Below are positions 3,251-22,261 of a DNA stretch of 23,325 nucleotides, piece by piece. The notes below the pieces were generated by a model. It had not been told where the DNA came from. It saw only the letters and a list, made by a program, of their open reading frames with translations, and searched no databases. The DNA lies in the IMG/VR virus record IMGVR_UViG_2511231170_000001, one strand, 5' to 3'. This stretch comes from a virus. Its lineage: Duplodnaviria > Heunggongvirae > Uroviricota > Caudoviricetes. The position numbers and the translations under genes were made by a program. Each line of letters starts with the position of its first letter. The stretch's first letter is position 1.

Positions 3251-4393
3251 CTTATGACCTTTGTCAAATATTAAGCCCAAAAAGACCTTACGCAGCTCCG
3301 GGAGCTTCGTTATATCGCGGATTAAAGAACCTGAAACAGTCAGACTGTATCTTGGATTTTACAAACTCTTATTCGGGGATTTTAGCCCCATGACGATTTA
3401 CGCAGTGAGCTGGCCTCTTTCTACGTGCAGGTATTAGCGCATTCTGGCTTCCCTGAATTCTTTTACGAGGATCACTCATTCCGTGTCTGACTGCTTCAGG
3501 GTTTAATTTTGCTTCTGCTGACTGAATGATGATTGGGCAGCAAGTGCAATATCCCACATAAATCCAGTCAACTCACGAGCCACCGCCGTAATGGCTACTT
3601 GTGATTTTTTCCCTTTTGCTGTCAGACTTCGGTAACGAGAACACAATCGTTGTTGAGCTTTCCATGCAATATCTTTGGAATATTGTGTTACAGAGTCCGG
3701 TCGGTAATATATAAGCCATGCCCCAACTTTTGCAGGTGTACGATAAGACCAGGCGGCTTCGTAAAGCAGACGTCTCAGTTCGCTGTTTCCAACTTTTGTT
3801 ATTCCTCTGGGACGAATACTGTTTCCACTGGAATATTCACCTGGCACCAGTCCCAGAAAAGCCATGAGCTGTTTGGGATTGGAAAATCGCGAAAAATCAC
3901 CCAGTTCAGCAACCAGAGTTATTGCAATTAGCTGACCAACACCTTTAAGAGCCTGCAACTGGCAGACCAGATTGCACAGAGACCACTCAGGTAACAGGCG
4001 AGATATTTCCTGGTCGAGTTGAAGTATGCGATCTTCAATCTGCTCCAGACTTTGACAATAGTGTTGAAAAGCAATCTGTTGAGATGGCTGACTAAATGAT
4101 TGATTAGCTAACCAGGTTCGATGTTTTCCTGTCCAGTGCTTTCCTGCATAATGTTTGTCTGTTCGCAATAGCATGCTCAGAATTCGCTGTCGGGCAACTC
4201 TGCTGTCTCGTTTAGCTGCTGCACGGGCTCTGATTAGATCCCGCATAGCTTCATGAGTCAGGTCAGGGATCCAGACAGGGGTAAGTTCTCCAGCCCGCAG
4301 TAACCTGGCGAGAGAAATTGCGTCCCGATGATCATTTTTGATTCTGTCTGTCGGTGATTTTGGTATGCGGGAAGGGGCAATAACCTGGCATTT
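3251..4393 (-). mobile_element. IS110/IS1111-family element, 3' portion (C-terminal part of transposase plus 250-bp 3' noncoding end)
   Basis: DEDD-type IS110-family transposase similarity; subterminal TATGACC at 3252-3258 is the inverted partner of GGTCATA at 15534-15540; the two parts sum to about 1.45 kb, a typical IS110-family size. Confidence 0.65.
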
Positions 4394-4441
4394 TATATTC
4401 ATCGCTGTGATTTTATAAATTAGTGTTTTTTGCTGTTTCAT
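3503..4441 (-). pseudogene. IS110-family transposase, C-terminal about 300 aa; the ATG at 4441 and first ~16 codons lie on the island side of the junction
   Basis: ...IKCQVIAPSRIPKSPTDRIKNDHRDAISLARLLRAGEL matches the IS110-family consensus; the N-terminal 77 aa of the same protein are at 15237-15485. Confidence 0.8.
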
Positions 4442-4537
4442 AATGTGCCACGTTGTTCATTATGTTTTTGATTTTTAAGCTCATTGCAATTTTTCTTGTT
4501 CCAACTTGTTCCACGTTGTACCCCCTTGTGCAATGAT

Positions 4538-4563
4538 CGGTGTAGTTAATGGTGTAGTTAATT
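4538..4563 (+). repeat. Left terminal 26-bp direct repeat CGGTGTAGTTAATGGTGTAGTTAATT (two tandem GGTGTAGTTAAT units); candidate integrase arm-type site or att core
   Basis: Perfect 26/26 match to 15154-15179; preceded by 10-bp-phased CTTGTTCCA repeats at 4495-4513. Confidence 0.85.
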
Positions 4564-4584
4564 GTGATGACCGGATTCAAAATT

Positions 4585-5814
4585 ATGAGCAGAGCACTTA
4601 ACAAACTGAGCGATACACAGCTAAGAAAAATCAACGGCACACCAGCCCCAAAAACCACATTTCTTAATGACGGTGGAAACCTGAGCGTCAGGCATTCCAC
4701 CAGCGGCTTATTAACCTGGTATTTCACCTACAGAGCAGGAGCTGGACGCCAGGTATCACCGGAACGCCTGAAGCTGGGAAATTATCCTGATCTGAGCCTG
4801 AAAGCAGCCAGGGAAAAAGCGGCACAGTGTCGCGCATGGCTGGCAGAAGGAAAAAATCCACGCCATGAGCTTAATTACTCCATACAGGAAGCACTAAAGC
4901 CGGTAACGGTGGGTGATGCGATCAGCTACTGGCTGGAAATGCACGTAAAGGAAAACCGTGTCGATTACGTATGCCTGAAAAGCCGCCTGAATAATCACGT
5001 CATACAGCATATTGGCAATATGCCACTGGATAAATGCGAGTTACGTCACTGGCTGGCCTGTTTTGACCGGATACGCAAAAAATCCCCTGTAACGTCTGGT
5101 CACATGATGCAGGCGTGTAAACAGGCGCTTAAGTTCTGCCGTAAACGTCGCTACGCAGTCAGTAACGTTCTGGATGATCTTAACGTGGTGGACGTTGGCA
5201 AAAAACCAGGCATAAGCGAACGCGTGCTGAGCAACAAAGAACTTGGCGAATTATTACAGGCGCTGGATAAAAAAATATTCCCGCCCTACTACAGCGCACT
5301 AATCCGCCTCCTGATTGTGTTCGGCTGCCGAACCGGAGAACTGAGATTATCGGAGATCAGGGAGTGGGATTTTAAGGAAATGCTCTGGACAGTACCGAAA
5401 GAGCACAGCAAAACGAAGGTCGCCATATTCAGGCCAATACCGGAAAGCATTTTACCGTTCGTCACGCAGCTGGTGGAGCAGAACAGACACACAGGGCTAT
5501 TACTCGGGGAACTGAAACAGGAAGCCAGTGTGTCGCAATACGGCAGATTCATGCACAAAAAATTAAACCATCCGCACTGGTCACTACACGATATACGGCG
5601 CACGTTTACCACGATGCTGAACGATTTAGGCGTGGATCCGCATATTGTCGAACAACTCACCGCTCACCAGATGCCAGGGATGCAGCGAGTCTATAACCAC
5701 TCCCGTTATCTCGATGCGAAACGTAATGCGCTGGACATGTGGACAGAGCGGTTAGAGATACTGGCGGGTACTCACAAAAACGTAACCACACTGCCAATAG
5801 CCAGAGAAATATAA
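4585..5814 (+). CDS. int: Tyrosine site-specific integrase (P4-type, N-terminal arm-binding domain)
   Basis: N-terminus LSDTQLRK...DGGNLSV...WYFTYR and C-terminal HDIRRTF...Y catalytic region; start uncertain (GTG 4564, ATG 4567 or ATG 4585). Confidence 0.9.
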   Translation: MSRALNKLSDTQLRKINGTPAPKTTFLNDGGNLSVRHSTSGLLTWYFTYRAGAGRQVSPERLKLGNYPDLSLKAAREKAAQCRAWLAEGKNPRHELNYSIQEALKPVTVGDAISYWLEMHVKENRVDYVCLKSRLNNHVIQHIGNMPLDKCELRHWLACFDRIRKKSPVTSGHMMQACKQALKFCRKRRYAVSNVLDDLNVVDVGKKPGISERVLSNKELGELLQALDKKIFPPYYSALIRLLIVFGCRTGELRLSEIREWDFKEMLWTVPKEHSKTKVAIFRPIPESILPFVTQLVEQNRHTGLLLGELKQEASVSQYGRFMHKKLNHPHWSLHDIRRTFTTMLNDLGVDPHIVEQLTAHQMPGMQRVYNHSRYLDAKRNALDMWTERLEILAGTHKNVTTLPIAREI

Positions 5815-6181
5815 TTTTTTTTGCGATTTTTTAGAACTGACACAACGTGAAACAACGAGACACCACGACGAACAACGGCGAACAATCTGGAACAAACTTG
5901 ATTAACATCTGACTGACACCCTAAAAAGTTGATTTTCAGTCGTTTTACTGGCTTTTTGTACATTGGCGAATCACTCTTAAAAACATGTAAAAAAGGCGTA
6001 AAAACAGAATTTTATGCCTTTGCACCACAATGAATTAAAAGAGTTTTTATTCTCATTACCACACTTCTGTAAAATGACCGCCGCCAGTGTTTGCCATTCC
6101 ATAAACACCCTGACACAATCCGACGCACCACAACACAATAGGACACCAAATAACTCTTTAAGAAATATCAAAGGGGGAATT

Positions 6182-6370
6182 GTGTTAAGCACAGATCGCT
6201 TTATACGTGAAAAAGAATGTCAGCAACTTACAGGCCTGAGCCGTTCATGTCGGTACCGCCTGGAAAAAACCGGACAATTCCCATCACGGCGTAAGCTCGG
6301 CGGTCGTTCCGTTGGCTGGTCTTTATCCGAAGTTCTGGCATGGAAGGAAAGCTGCGAGGCAGTTCACTAA
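6182..6370 (+). CDS. alpA: AlpA-family transcriptional regulator / excisionase-like protein
   Basis: GTG start after AAGGGGGAA Shine-Dalgarno; ...GLSRSCRYRLEKTGQFPSRRKLGGRSVGWSLSEVLAWKE resembles AlpA. Confidence 0.8.
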   Translation: MLSTDRFIREKECQQLTGLSRSCRYRLEKTGQFPSRRKLGGRSVGWSLSEVLAWKESCEAVH

Positions 6371-6898
6371 TCAGGCTGGCGGCACACAGCCGCCACCCAT
6401 CCACTAATACAGAGATCTAACCATGAATACTGGATATTCTCCCGAACAAGGGCGGGGCTTCGTTCGTCCTGAAAAACAGAATCTGCAAAATTTTGCCGAA
6501 ATTATTCCGGTTATTTCCGGCCTTACTGGCGGGAGTGAAACCAATATTGTTAACGCCAGAGCGTTGCAGATGTTTGATGATAAAAAGGGAGTAAATTTAA
6601 CTTACACCCCTGACGGCAATCAGAATATGAGCATTATCTCTGAGTCAGGTTTCTACAAACTAATAAAAACAAAAAGCGCCCCGTTGCCGGAGCGCCTTTG
6701 TGAACAATTAACCTACTGCGCAAAAAATGAATCTGAGCAGTGGGATTATATCAACCGTGTGGCGAAGCGCCACAATTGCCGGATAACAGGCAAAACAAAG
6801 GCCACCCGCTACGGTGGCCCCTCGACACAAGCTACACGTTATCCCCAACGCATGAGCATCACCAACAATGCCACATTTGCGGCTGGTGGGCAATGTGA

Positions 6899-7087
6899 TC
6901 AGTCAGATTTGGTTCGTTCCAAGGTTTGCAACGAGAGCTTTTTCCTGTGCTCTTTAAGGAATTTCTCAAGAGCAAAAGCACATGGCGCGAATCTTTCTGA
7001 TTCATGCTCTATCTTTCTGCGCCGTCTTTTCCGTGCCGGTGATAATGTTTTGGTCAATTCTTTATCGGTCATTGTGTTGTCCTGCAT
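6899..7087 (-). CDS. Small basic hypothetical protein, second gene of the leftward operon
   Basis: 62-aa ORF downstream of the RHH-like gene; hairpin plus T-run terminator on the minus strand near 6790-6820. Confidence 0.3.
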   Translation of the reverse strand: MQDNTMTDKELTKTLSPARKRRRRKIEHESERFAPCAFALEKFLKEHRKKLSLQTLERTKSD

Positions 7088-7129
7088 AGCAATGCGCCGT
7101 AATACCTTACACCACGGCGCTGATGGTGA

Positions 7130-7435
7130 TTACTCTGGTTCTTTGGTCTTGCGACGCTGGAGTTCTTCGCGTGCAACGGTGACAAGCTGCCCGATTTCTT
7201 CCGCTGCTTTGATGCCGATTTGTTCGACCTTAGCCAGGGCATCCAGTGACGACACAAGGGGATTTTCTCCGCTGCCTTCTGCTTGGCGGCGGGCTATTTC
7301 TCCGCGCATGGCGGTTACGATAAATCCGGCATTGCTTTCGCCGTCCAGCTTAACGGATTCCATCCCTTGCATAACATCTAGTGGGACTCTGACAGTTGTC
7401 AGTTGTGATTTTGCGTTTTTGTTAGCCGTTGCCAT
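7130..7435 (-). CDS. Putative ribbon-helix-helix DNA-binding protein; candidate island repressor
   Basis: AGGAG Shine-Dalgarno 7 nt before ATG; N-terminal beta-strand then two helices (TTVRVPLDVMQGMESVKLDGESNAGFIVTAMRGEIARR); divergent from the rightward operon. Confidence 0.55.
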   Translation of the reverse strand: MATANKNAKSQLTTVRVPLDVMQGMESVKLDGESNAGFIVTAMRGEIARRQAEGSGENPLVSSLDALAKVEQIGIKAAEEIGQLVTVAREELQRRKTKEPE

Positions 7436-7496
7436 TTCTGAAACTCCTAATCATCGGTGTGTTTCAGTATACACAAAAAAAGAAATACAAAAAGCC

Positions 7497-7534
7497 TTGA
7501 CGTGTGTTTCATGCGCTCATAACATGAAACACAC
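7497..7534 (+). promoter_or_regulatory. Rightward promoter (-35 TTGACG 7497-7502, 17-bp spacer, -10 TAACAT 7520-7525) overlapped by a perfect 12-bp inverted repeat GTGTGTTTCATG-N9-CATGAAACACAC
   Basis: Read directly; a further half-site GTGTGTTTCA at 7457-7466. Confidence 0.5.
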
Positions 7535-7632
7535 CAAAAGAATTGTTGAAATACAAAGAGCAACGCCCCGCAGTGCCGGAAACACATACGGGGCGTCTAA
7601 CCACCAACGATAGCAAGATTATCGAGGCTGCT

Positions 7633-7839
7633 ATGAGAAATCATACCATACACCCGCAAGGGCGGGACTCGCACAACCTGAATAAATACATCTGGCGTTT
7701 TATCGCCCTGAGTACGGCACAACCGCGCGTGATTACCATTGAGGCCACCAGCGAACAGGAAGCCCGTCAGCAATCACCGGCTGGCTGCGTGATGGTATTC
7801 GCCGCCCGTATTCGTCAGGGGGTGCACCATGTGCAATAA
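7633..7839 (+). CDS. Small protein resembling Icd-like (host cell division inhibitor-like) proteins of P4-like islands
   Basis: GAGG Shine-Dalgarno; motif WRFIA...IEATSEQEARQ...FAARI recalled from Icd-like annotations; uncertain. Confidence 0.45.
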   Translation: MRNHTIHPQGRDSHNLNKYIWRFIALSTAQPRVITIEATSEQEARQQSPAGCVMVFAARIRQGVHHVQ

Positions 7840-8065
7840 CACCCGTCCGGACGCAGCCGCCGAAGCAATCAAAACACTGATTGATGCGCTGATTGATATT
7901 TCTGTTATCGCGGACAGGGCGCATAAGCACGCTACCAGTGAAACAGAATATGCCGGGGCTTTCGTTCCTCATTCACTGGCTGTAATGCAACTTAGTGCTG
8001 ATATGGCACTGAATGAGGCCAGCAAAATTATCATGGCTGATATGGAGGTGGTGAGCCATGAATAA
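7829..8065 (+). CDS. Hypothetical protein
   Basis: 78-aa ORF, start overlaps the preceding gene's end. Confidence 0.4.
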   Translation: MCNNTRPDAAAEAIKTLIDALIDISVIADRAHKHATSETEYAGAFVPHSLAVMQLSADMALNEASKIIMADMEVVSHE

Positions 8066-8270
8066 TAATGAAGCGCACTTATCTGTAGTGCTGAATGTGC
8101 CGTCAGATTATACGGGGCGCGTACTGGTGTATCTGGAAAAAGGCCGGGTTAAATGCCAGTGCCGTTTAATGGAAAACGAATTTATCAGCACTCTTGCGGG
8201 ATTTTCTGAAATGCTCACTAAATCGGGTGTTAGTGCAGACCAGTTACGCGGGGGCGATTATGCGAAATAA
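8058..8270 (+). CDS. Hypothetical protein
   Basis: 70-aa ORF overlapping its neighbours by a few nucleotides. Confidence 0.4.
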   Translation: MNNNEAHLSVVLNVPSDYTGRVLVYLEKGRVKCQCRLMENEFISTLAGFSEMLTKSGVSADQLRGGDYAK

Positions 8271-8478
8271 ACATGATATTGAAGACCTGGCATTTGAAGC
8301 CCTGCACTCTGCGAAAAAAATCAGGGAAGTCGTCAATATGTGGATGAACAGCCTTAGCACCGATGAATCCGATAGCAGAGAGGAAATTCTTATTTCTTTG
8401 TTGTTAGACCTGGCAAATACACAGGTTTCTCTGACATCTGATATTGAACTCGCCGCTAAAAATCTGCCTCTGGAGTAA
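8260..8478 (+). CDS. Hypothetical protein
   Basis: ATG at 8260 overlaps the upstream stop (ATGCGAAATAA); acidic 72-aa product. Confidence 0.4.
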   Translation: MRNKHDIEDLAFEALHSAKKIREVVNMWMNSLSTDESDSREEILISLLLDLANTQVSLTSDIELAAKNLPLE

Positions 8479-8484
8479 AAAAAC

Positions 8485-8784
8485 ATGAAACAGAAAAATT
8501 CTGGCTTTACTGCCAGTGGTCTCCCTCGGCCTGAAATCCGCCCCGGCGATATTTTCCGGGATAACTACGGTGGCACGGTAACGATTAAAAGCGTGGCGGG
8601 GCGGTGCGTTACTTACCGCCGTGATGGGTACGGCTATGACTGCGTGATGCCTGCTTATCAGTTCCGGCGTGATTTTTCACTGATACAGGCCACACCACGC
8701 AAACAGCCCACCAGCAACGCAAAGGCACGGGCAAATATTCAGAAAATGAAAAACATGATTAACGCATTCAGGGGCAAAAAATGA
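8485..8784 (+). CDS. Hypothetical protein
   Basis: 99-aa ORF directly upstream of, and overlapping by 4 nt, the replication gene. Confidence 0.45.
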   Translation: MKQKNSGFTASGLPRPEIRPGDIFRDNYGGTVTIKSVAGRCVTYRRDGYGYDCVMPAYQFRRDFSLIQATPRKQPTSNAKARANIQKMKNMINAFRGKK

Positions 8785-20537: not shown

Positions 20538-21358
20538 CAGCGCTGGCTCTCCAGCAGCGTTTCTGCCATTACCCACAATGCGCGGTTGAGCTTAATATCG
20601 GTGTCGATGCTGTGAATGGCACGGGTGTGGATACGTTTTCCTTTTGCACTGCGACCGGAAATCCCGCCTTTCAGCATATTCTCCTGGATGGTCTGATAAG
20701 TACTCCACAGGTCCTTACCGTAATCCTCCCGGCGTCGTGGCGTCAGAATGTCGGCGGTGGTGACGGGCCGATGTTCGTCACCATAACGGTAAGTCAGTGC
20801 CGCCTGTGCCAGCGCCTGGCGTGCCGGTGGCGGCAGAATCAGCGACTGCATGGCATCACGCATCTCCTCTATCCGGTCAAACACGCCCACCACCTCGTAA
20901 GCCCCTTCAATGACTCTGTCCACCACATTTCCCCGGTGCGGAACACGCACTTCCCCCAGAGACTGACCACAGACGCATCCGTTCTGGCAGACGAACCTGA
21001 AGTAACCCGGCAGCATCTGGTAGCTGGAGGTACCGTCATGAGAGTTGAGCAGAATAATTTCAGGGACATGTTCTCCGTTTATCTCTCCGTTACGGCGCAG
21101 GCGCAGCATGTGTTTTGTGTATCCCCGGCGGCCCGGGTCGCGCACACAGGTCTGGCAGGCGAAGAATGGCTGAAAGCCTTCCCGCTGCAGGCTTTCCAGT
21201 ACGGTGATGGTGGGGATGTACGTATAGTTCTGGCTTCGGGACGTGTGTTTCTCTTCCCCGAAAATCCCCGGCACATGGTGCATCAGCTCTTCATGTGTCA
21301 GTGGACGGTCACGGCGTATCTGGTTCGCAGCATAACCAAAACAACTGGCTAATCGCAT
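20537..21358 (-). CDS. DUF932-domain protein (YfjQ-like)
   Basis: 273 aa; MRLAS.FG...IRR.RPLT..ELM..VP..F...KH.SRS..YTYIPTI...L...GFQPFFACQ pattern recalled from YfjQ. Confidence 0.8.
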   Translation of the reverse strand: MRLASCFGYAANQIRRDRPLTHEELMHHVPGIFGEEKHTSRSQNYTYIPTITVLESLQREGFQPFFACQTCVRDPGRRGYTKHMLRLRRNGEINGEHVPEIILLNSHDGTSSYQMLPGYFRFVCQNGCVCGQSLGEVRVPHRGNVVDRVIEGAYEVVGVFDRIEEMRDAMQSLILPPPARQALAQAALTYRYGDEHRPVTTADILTPRRREDYGKDLWSTYQTIQENMLKGGISGRSAKGKRIHTRAIHSIDTDIKLNRALWVMAETLLESQR

Positions 21359-21394
21359 ACTTTGCTCCTTATCGGTGGTTAAGATTTACTGGTG

Positions 21395-21425
21395 TAATAA
21401 ATGAAAAAGCCACGTCTCCCGGAGA
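21395..21425 (-). terminator. Possible rho-independent terminator on the minus strand
   Basis: Reverse complement reads GCGTCTTCTCCGGGAGACG followed by TTTTTCATTT. Confidence 0.3.
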
Positions 21426-21457
21426 AGACGCAGCCTGATGGGTGAAATGAATGACGT

Positions 21458-21691
21458 TTATTGTCTTAGAGGACCGTCACTGGCGAGCCGCGTATTAAGC
21501 ACCTTTCCGGCATCGGGTTCAGAATTCCGGCAGCGCCAGCGTCGCTGACCTTCCGCGTTGCGGATAACCCAACGGAAATGCATTCCCGGGTCATCCTGGA
21601 TAAACACATTGCGGTAAGCTGTTATGACAGCAACCTCCTGTTCGCGTAAGAAAGGGGCTTCGGAAAATAAGAGTAATGTACAGCCCCTCAT
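21458..21691 (-). CDS. Hypothetical protein, possibly a gene remnant
   Basis: ORF only. Confidence 0.3.
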
Positions 21692-21808
21692 GTGTTTTCA
21701 CCTGAAAATAAAAAGCCCCAGCCATAATGGCAGGAGCGAATTTACTATTGATTTTAATAATGCGCAGATAAGACGCATAATTCCTTTAATAGTTTTGTTC
21801 GTTATGGA

Positions 21809-22261
21809 TTATTCGAGTGGATAGTCGCGATAGTGCCAGTATTTACCATCAACATAAAAGGTCACCTTACCGCGACGTTTACCCTCCCTATAAAACGTAT
21901 CGAAATTCCAGGTAACATTCTTGCCAGTTGAATAGCTGCCACCAACGACAACATCACCAACCATTATTGCATGAACAACCACGCCATAAGCGTTAAGTCT
22001 GCCTTTACCATTGGGGGAATTGAAAGGGATTCGGACAACGCTTGCTGCACCCCAGGGGTCAGTTTGTTCAACAAAGCAGAGACCTTTAAAGCGTAAACGT
22101 GCATTACATGGGAACTGGTTACGGTTTTGCGCGAACTCCACATATTCCGGGAACGGTGCACGACCTTTCTCAGGACGCTTTACTAATGCGGCGTCGCTAT
22201 CAGGTACGATAGTCATGAACAGGAAAGCAACAAAGAACGTTAAAATGTGTCGGTGTTTCAT
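21809..22261 (-). CDS. Putative secreted protein with N-terminal signal peptide
   Basis: Start at ATG 22261 after AAGGA; MKHRHILTFFVAFLFMTIVPDSDA signal-like N-terminus; AT-rich gene. Confidence 0.6.
   Translation of the reverse strand: MKHRHILTFFVAFLFMTIVPDSDAALVKRPEKGRAPFPEYVEFAQNRNQFPCNARLRFKGLCFVEQTDPWGAASVVRIPFNSPNGKGRLNAYGVVVHAIMVGDVVVGGSYSTGKNVTWNFDTFYREGKRRGKVTFYVDGKYWHYRDYPLE

Follow-up and report, generated by a model that had tools for sequence, protein, structure and literature searches.

Control by a ribbon-helix-helix (RHH) repressor that acts on repeated operators at divergent promoters is of a well-known kind. RHH proteins are obligate dimers that insert a two-stranded antiparallel sheet into the major groove. 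Mnt and Arc of phage P22 repress in this manner at Pant/Pmnt and omega does so at its heptad arrays, and phased multi-site arrays with mixed orientations are typical of omega- and ParG-type RHH proteins. The organisation of Gram-negative phage-inducible chromosomal islands (PICIs) like the island studied here was set out by Fillol-Salom et al. 2018 (PMC6092414). In the model island EcCICFT073, AlpA is the activator, and helper phages turn on alpA; over-expression of AlpA without a helper is sufficient for excision and pri-dependent replication (PMC6092414). In the same work, a repressor in Gram-negative PICIs was called 'unclear' (PMC6092414).

Here we analysed a divergent junction in a DNA stretch of 23,325 bases, the whole of which is referred to as the window. 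The leftward gene at this junction encodes a 101-aa protein of the YlcI/YnfO family, a family that is named but has no described function, and no mention of the gene as a regulator was found in the openly searchable literature. The sequence comparisons suggest, with a probability of about 0.7, that the 101-aa protein is an Arc/Mnt-class RHH protein that acts on a phased array of sites, represses the rightward promoter PR, and autoregulates its own promoter PL, with induction occurring via AlpA. This protein is probably the off-switch that was thought to be missing from Gram-negative PICIs.

The window originates from an E. coli chromosome, and identical copies occur in several complete genomes. 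It contains a PICI of ~10 kb at roughly 4,450-15,200, with the described genes spanning 4585-14622. The gene order, int - alpA - ... - replication module - capsid/decoration/small terminase, is that of a Gram-negative PICI of the EcCICFT073 type, and the window island and EcCICFT073 share this order and many genes. Relatives of the window stretch were found in 1,760 of 5,426 complete E. coli genomes, including that of the model EcCICFT073. The island genes and the terminators of the leftward operon are as follows:

4585-5814, plus strand: integrase gene (int)
6182-6370, plus strand: alpA, the published activator of this island class, convergent with the leftward operon (Pfam PF05930, E=1e-17; annotation; PMC6092414)
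6797-6822 and, second, 6672-6699, minus strand: intrinsic terminators of the leftward operon (10-12-bp stems followed by T runs)
6899-7087, minus strand: 62-aa very basic ORF, second gene of the leftward operon (phrog_21027 match, E=2e-14)
7130-7435, minus strand: gene of the 101-aa YlcI/YnfO-family protein, with a predicted RHH head (residues ~10-53) and a long conserved C-terminal helix (59-98)
7382-7435, minus strand: codons 1-18 of this gene, N-terminal arm and beta-strand (MATANKNAKSQLTTVRVP), the putative specificity head
7633-7839, plus strand: Icd-like gene, first gene of the PR operon
8485-8784, 8781-10196, and 10646-11068, plus strand: DUF4222, RepA-type helicase, and SSB genes, which follow the Icd-like gene after small ORFs
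beyond ssb, rightward: genes of the major capsid, head decoration, a 137-aa protein, and the small terminase subunit (13713-14267)

The leftward 101-aa gene and the rightward icd-helicase-ssb operon are thus divergent, with 197 bp between them. The 62-aa ORF (…SPARKRRRRKIEHESERF…) is unannotated in the identical E. coli chromosomes, and its homologue in CFT073, which is 85% identical, has an annotation. Downstream of the helicase gene, direct repeats at 10194-10388 comprise two exact copies of AAAAAGTGGGTAGTAAAAGTGGGGAG and a third 19-nt copy between them, spaced by 83-85 bp; these are probably the iterons of the island's replication origin. Between ssb and the capsid gene, a strong hairpin at 11277-11329 with 21-nt arms (AAAAAGCCCGATAAG…CTTATCGGGCTTTT) is flanked by A and T runs on both sides and looks like a bidirectional terminator that separates the replication and packaging modules. 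PR transcription therefore probably stops short of the head genes, which PR had been thought to drive according to the first-pass annotation.

The island sits inside an IS110-like ISEc45 transposase gene, the halves of which flank it at ~3500-4425 and ~15230-15480 (21003-21923 and 32734-32982 in the sequence L109). An IS66 copy in turn surrounds the split ISEc45 gene, and both belong to a larger island that carries CbtA/YeeU-type genes and is located downstream of a tRNA-Asp gene. Integration into an insertion-sequence gene is uncommon. A full related island with int, alpA, YlcI/YnfO, Icd-like, DUF4222, primase, and protease-capsid fusion genes has been deposited as a circular 10.8-kb non-mobilizable 'plasmid' (L110, NZ_CP148328.1), suggesting that this record represents the assembled excised, replicating form of an island. 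Two more small 'plasmids' with a match are from Klebsiella pneumoniae (H32) and Klebsiella aerogenes (H33).

The ORF of the 101-aa protein runs from 7435 to 7130 on the minus strand and is preceded, at a distance of 8 nt, by the Shine-Dalgarno sequence AGGAG. The NCBI pipeline names it 'YlcI/YnfO family protein' in the identical E. coli chromosomes, and residues 9-50 matched NCBIfam NF041551 at 63.2 bits (cutoff 30). AlphaFold2, applied to the monomer, predicted the first ~17 residues to be extended, with no assigned helix, and to be followed by helices at 19-28 and 35-52/53, with a pLDDT of about 90 over the domain, while the C-terminal part was predicted to form a single long helix (59-98, pLDDT ~95). 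Structural matches to the N-terminal 55 residues were nearly all RHH repressors (AmrZ, omega, Arc, NikR, CopG). Omega was the joint top match, and the RHH antitoxins RelB, TacA, HicB, and Rv0298 were also among the matches. The G-x-S/T/N turn that caps helix B is present as G32-E33-S34 right before helix 35-52, with E33 being nearly invariant; the counterpart of this turn in Arc and Mnt is NGRS. The strand could be placed in register, with weak alignment scores, with QFNLRWP of Arc and HFNFRMP of Mnt, which would direct L12, T14, and R16 towards the DNA, and R16 is invariant. None of the Pfam RHH models scored above threshold (best PF07704, E=0.02, 16 bits vs a cutoff of 28), and the hhalign match to Arc was weak (E=0.0035, 9% probability). 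Two homologues are labelled 'Arc-like DNA binding domain-containing protein' in UniRef. On the strength of the structure prediction, the protein most likely has an RHH head of the Arc/Mnt class; the RHH-like N-terminus that had been proposed from the letters of the gene is borne out by the predicted strand-helix-helix fold and its RHH structural matches.

Conservation is far higher in the C-terminal domain than in the head, with L60, S62-L64, L67, E71, I73, and G74 being invariant. A Pfam search with this part gave no match, and neither did a tblastn search of 50,697 phage genomes with the full-length protein. A profile search of 1.84 billion representative proteins yielded only 72 clusters, comprising long and short forms. 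Among these 72 clusters, the C-terminal domain did not occur on a different head, and modularity of the domain can therefore not be claimed. Residues 45-86 (7130-7300) gave a marginal PDB profile match to the helix-hairpin-helix of Hef (E=0.004), and LDALAKVEQIGIKAAEEI resembles the motif L..L..hpGIG…A..I in a region that contains the invariant G74. A Hef-like helix-hairpin-helix conflicts with the one uninterrupted helix predicted by AlphaFold2 (pLDDT ~95) and was not adopted for these residues.

The intergenic region contains a perfect 12-bp inverted repeat, GTGTGTTTCATG at 7502-7513 and CATGAAACACAC at 7523-7534 with a 9-nt gap, exactly to the base as had been reported in the first-pass annotation. 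This repeat belongs to a candidate array of four to five sites of 9-10 bp with the consensus GTGTGTTTCA, which spans 7457-7555. The sites, the promoter elements, and the leader of the PR transcript are arranged as follows:

7457-7466, plus strand: O4, GTGTGTTTCA, 10/10, directly downstream of the PL -10
7466-7471, minus strand: putative PL -10, TATACT (TATAMT conserved in most of 17 loci)
7481-7490, minus strand: O3, degenerate copy, AGAAATACAA on the plus strand, 7/10, in the PL spacer
7497-7502, plus strand: PR -35, TTGACG (consensus scan; TTGAC conserved in 17 loci)
7502-7513, plus strand: O2, left arm of the palindrome, in the PR spacer
7520-7525, plus strand: PR -10, TAACAT (consensus scan; TAnnnT conserved)
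7523-7534, minus strand: O1, right arm of the palindrome, over the end of the PR -10 and the putative transcription start
7547-7555, minus strand: O0, weaker fifth copy, TGAAATACA, about 15-23 nt into the PR transcript
7560-7632, plus strand: conserved structured leader with two hairpins, the second of which abuts the Shine-Dalgarno sequence

The five sites are spaced by 23, 22, 22, and 22 bp, which corresponds to about two helical turns and places all candidate sites on one face of the DNA; none of 300 shuffles gave five copies. The exact 10-mer occurs three times in the window, each time inside the same 78 bp. With one mismatch allowed, seven matches were obtained (2.2 expected; none of 100 shuffles reached seven), and the 8-mer core had six matches in the window compared to 0.97 expected, a count that was not reached in shuffles. 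The 10-mer search of the window revealed no further site matches elsewhere inside the island. The core of O3, GAAATACA, is invariant in all nine aligned sequences of type A, the type of the window, which represent four genera. O0 is less conserved in other genera. The sixth exact copy of the 8-mer core (GAAACACA, 7579-7586) is located in a hairpin loop of the leader and is probably due to chance, since the remaining loci of this type do not have it there.

The hexamers of PR are 17 nt apart, and the same spacing was found in the loci that were read by eye. Matches to 9 of the 12 promoter positions were no rarer in this region than expected by chance (6 found, 3.4 expected), and the assignment of PR is based on TTGAC and TAnnnT being fixed in position across 17 loci rather than on the 9-of-12 match. 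The proposal that the repeat overlaps a rightward promoter with these two hexamers thus held up in the comparison. PL was not recovered by the consensus promoter scan and has no recognisable -35, the sequence at the corresponding position (7489-7494) being poor (CTTTTT). TATACT (7471 to 7466 on the minus strand), located ~30 nt upstream of the start codon of the leftward gene, would represent the -10 of this gene's own promoter. The arrangement has its mirror axis at ~7495; to either side, a first site lies in the spacer by the -35 and a second one right after the -10, and the two perfect sites fall on the PR core. The additional half-site that had been noted at 7457-7466 is real and exact, but the arrangement is a mirror-symmetric array over two promoters rather than a palindrome with a spare half-site.

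In the leader of the PR transcript, the first hairpin is GC-rich and contains an inner AGTG/CACT stem; an unpaired TCTAACCA and the second hairpin follow. RNAalifold on 15 loci revealed compensatory changes in 7 of 12 predicted pairs, and the single-sequence fold had a z-score of -2.15. On the opposite strand, a T-rich run follows the first hairpin. No Rfam family matched the leader; there was no Rfam match in the whole window at gathering score, nor any at E up to 10 over 6300-8300 (C4 and isrK included). RNA immunity of the P1/P4 type was accordingly excluded for the known families.

Related loci were collected from species-representative genomes (12 loci), from viral contigs (mostly near-identical copies), and from individual protein variants, which were the source of diversity. 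They were reduced to 53 distinct protein/upstream pairs, of which 17 representatives from at least seven genera were compared. All 17 share one architecture. When the loci were anchored on the -35, an A-tract with TTGAC, TAnnnT, and TATAMT on the other strand were conserved while the segments between them were variable, and these variable segments contained a short motif in three to five copies at the same 22-23-bp phase. In 11 of the 17 loci, no more than 2 of 300 shuffles reached the motif copy number; in four type-D and type-F loci, 8-14 of 300 shuffles did. The automatic repeat count failed for C_L016 and EcCICFT073, and the repeats in these two were read by eye. In the type-A footprint (four genera), 30 of 49 columns were invariant in the sites compared to 13 of 47 in the spacers.

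About nine site sequences occur across the 17 loci, and each is paired with one version of residues 1-18 of the protein. The following strands and site motifs go together:

strand KSQLTTVRVP: site motif GTGTGTTTC
strand KSKQISIRIP: site motif TGTGATTCA
strand KSQMTTIRVP: site motif GTGATATAC
strand KSQSLTARIP: site motif GTGTAAGAC
strand K-N-[IV]-R types: site motif GTGTGTAT
strand KSQQLNARFP: site motif TGGTATTCA
strand KSQMISTRVP: site motif GTGTAGTC
strand KSQALKARVP: site motif GTGTGGCCCAC

The site type tracks residues 1-18 and not residues 19-101, AlpA, the Icd-like protein, or the small downstream ORF. Compared to the window protein, three E. coli loci are 94%, 94%, and 90% identical over the rest of the protein and 67%, 71%, and 39% identical over the head (L073, which is of type D, L075, and L014, respectively), and their sites are GTGTAAGAC, GTGATATAC, and TGTGATTCA. 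Conversely, the proteins of Xenorhabdus (71% over the rest, 89% over the head) and Serratia (63% and 88%, respectively) are still accompanied by GTGTGTTTC. EcCICFT073 served as a control, as its AlpA (97%), Icd-like protein (97%), and small ORF (85%) are highly identical to those of the window, while the head differs and the sites, GGTGTGGCCCAC, are entirely different. A change in the first 18 residues is accompanied by a change in the site sequence, from which we concluded that protein and repeats are a cognate pair. Because the head codons adjoin the sites, all within 175 bp, linkage alone would keep them together; however, it does not account for one and the same substitution at all of the phased sites next to unchanged promoter hexamers in between. 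The orientation of the sites varies between types, which is unusual for a simple palindromic operator. Two cases with two copies were found, L009/L010 on one Xenorhabdus contig and L073/L074 in one genome, and within each pair both copies were of the same specificity type. These few cases thus lend no support to an avoidance of shared types by co-resident islands. L009 and L010 (Xenorhabdus vietnamensis, NZ_MUBJ01000038.1) are in opposite orientation about 4.3 kb apart, and one copy has point changes in two sites.

This co-variation also bears on the possibility that the repeats are read by AlpA, the Icd-like protein, or a host protein, and that the association with the RHH head is due to linkage only. 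The short distance between head codons and sites is compatible with such a reading, and the Icd-like family is labelled 'transcriptional repressor' in PHROGs. However, AlpA and the Icd-like protein of EcCICFT073 are ~97% identical to those of the window while the sites are wholly unlike, by which both were rejected as readers of the repeats, and a host factor would have no need of a set of about nine site sequences within one species; we consider an origin of this kind to be the least probable of all. Almost as improbable is that the protein is a type II antitoxin paired with the 62-aa basic ORF and that the repeats only serve the autoregulation of the pair. The order of the genes, with the RHH gene first, the small gene 43-58 nt downstream, and the repeats at the promoter of the pair, would be in line with this, as would the RHH antitoxins among the structural matches. 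However, the small ORF occurs in just 5 of the 17 loci, the full-length RHH protein persists without a partner ORF, and in EcCICFT073 the small ORF is present although the C-terminal domain, which would have to neutralise a toxin, is missing. In addition, the 62-aa ORF has no match in Pfam or NCBIfam and hence none to a toxin family, and both perfect sites are located on the PR core and not on the pair's own promoter. A toxin-antitoxin pair was rejected because of the occurrence of the ORF in 5 of 17 loci and its independence of the C-terminal domain.

Somewhat less remote, but still improbable, is a role as an architectural or copy-control protein (as omega, ParG, or CopG) or as a packaging accessory (as YlcI by cos), in which case the array would be a centromere, an origin, or another nucleoprotein site and any effect on the promoters would be secondary. 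The phased array with mixed orientations and the joint top structural match to omega point in this direction, and ylcI of the DLP12 prophage adjoins cos and nohD. Against this, the sites coincide exactly with the -35/-10 spacers and start points of two conserved promoters, the likely iterons are located elsewhere (10194-10388), the gene is far from the small-terminase gene (13713-14267), and an island that is normally integrated has no need of partition. The strongest of the competing explanations, although an unlikely one, is that the gene is the Gram-negative counterpart of Stl, i.e. a master repressor the C-terminal domain of which is targeted by a helper-phage protein or by a Bro/Ant-type antirepressor of the island, inactivation being obligatory for induction. 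It is consistent with the position of the gene at a divergent junction facing the replication operon, with a C-terminal domain that is more conserved than the head, as expected of a partner-binding surface, and with Bro-N or AntA genes between alpA and the RHH gene in several islands. However, the EcCICFT073 version has 59 aa and no C-terminal domain, yet the island is helper-inducible; over-expression of AlpA without any helper induces excision and replication; and in the window the Bro gene is merely a remnant. The start of a spurious 396-aa ORF (6423-6700, plus strand) gave a weak Bro-N match (E=0.011), and this segment is probably the remnant of a Bro/Ant-type gene that is found at this place, co-oriented with alpA, in the related islands L020, L021, L024, and L025.

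We thus favour an RHH repressor that acts on the phased array at PR and PL. Dimers of the protein would occupy the 9-10-bp phased sites and, in the long form, associate through the C-terminal helix. Occupancy of the sites would block RNA polymerase at PR and keep the icd-like/DUF4222/helicase/ssb replication operon off, and the same protein would autoregulate its own weak promoter PL. The first ~18 residues together with the sites may constitute a swappable specificity cassette that exists in about nine versions in enterobacterial islands. Induction would begin with helper-triggered AlpA and probably not with a helper protein attacking the repressor. The sequence analysis shows the phased sites, their overlap with conserved promoter elements, the predicted RHH fold, and the co-variation of head and sites; binding, repression, autoregulation, oligomerisation, and the way in which AlpA gets past the repressor are what we infer.

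EcCICFT073 possesses the same module in a 59-aa head-only version, encoded at 1380473-1380652 of NC_004431.1, with its own repeats and without the C-terminal domain. As AlpA alone starts the cycle of this island (PMC6092414) despite the module, repression, if real, is not dominant, and the RHH protein would be at most a basal silencer that is bypassed or overridden by the AlpA pathway. The idea of a master repressor that a helper phage must derepress, as put forward in the first-pass annotation, was therefore not supported in that form. The alpA gene, as well as the Bro-N or AntA genes in other islands, is transcribed towards the repressor operon, and the scan revealed no convincing plus-strand terminator between alpA and this operon. 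Read-through from alpA or convergent interference is therefore a candidate route past the repressor. In the other direction, the two strong minus-strand terminators end the leftward operon and insulate alpA from it. A more far-reaching version of the proposal is that Gram-negative PICIs have a dedicated RHH repressor, that the cassette of head and operator sets about nine or more 'immunity groups', and that the C-terminal helix of the long form is a sensor for release by a helper-phage or Bro/Ant-type protein or by AlpA-driven convergent transcription; this we regard as a tentative possibility.

If the protein silences the replication operon, it would provide the 'off' half that the switch has lacked so far, the role of AlpA could be addressed with a concrete target, and a question on satellite control would become directly testable in the existing model island EcCICFT073. 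The natural swaps of head and operator are a ready data set on how RHH strands read DNA, and the head/operator pairs could serve as an orthogonal repressor-operator set for engineered PICI vectors. Should the far-reaching version be true, a dedicated RHH repressor with immunity groups would unify the control of Gram-positive and Gram-negative PICIs, and the immunity groups would explain the coexistence of several islands in one cell.

Several described systems share individual traits with this locus. The immI region of P1 (c4 RNA-icd-ant) and the CI RNA of P4 are similar in that an Icd-like gene is the first gene after a conserved structured leader; however, P1 and P4 use RNA immunity, while control here appears to be protein-based, with no match to C4, isrK, or other Rfam families. 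The heptads of omega (pSM19035) are contiguous, in contrast to the 9-10-bp sites two helical turns apart, and omega, ParG, and CopG-type proteins belong to plasmids while the island is an integrated satellite. YlcI (DLP12) and YnfO (Qin) of the cryptic prophages of E. coli K-12 are members of the same NCBIfam family by virtue of the N-terminal 42 residues, but YlcI has 64 aa, lacks the C-terminal helix, and is encoded next to cos and nohD and not before a replication operon. The DLP12 ylcI gene (L108, 7252-7835) reads as a short RHH protein (…TTTRNIRFPNQMIEQI…), adjoins the lambda-type cos, and faces nohD. Mnt and Arc of P22 immI have no significant homology to the 101-aa protein beyond the strand (hhalign probability 1-9%), act on a single operator of 17-21 bp rather than on four or five sites 22-23 bp apart, and control an antirepressor gene instead of a satellite replication operon. 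Stl is a helix-turn-helix protein, as opposed to the RHH fold found here, and int lies to the same side as the repressor gene and is oriented like it (PMC6092414), while in the window int (4585-5814) and alpA (6182-6370) are plus-strand genes that run towards the leftward gene. Unlike the Stl systems, in which a helper-phage protein lifts repression by binding the repressor and deletion of the repressor leads to uncontrolled induction, the island has an AlpA activator layer and no known interaction with a helper-phage protein. Nevertheless, Stl/Rpr of Gram-positive PICIs (SaPIs) and the gene described here are both located at a divergent junction facing the satellite replication module, and both occur with many allelic specificities.
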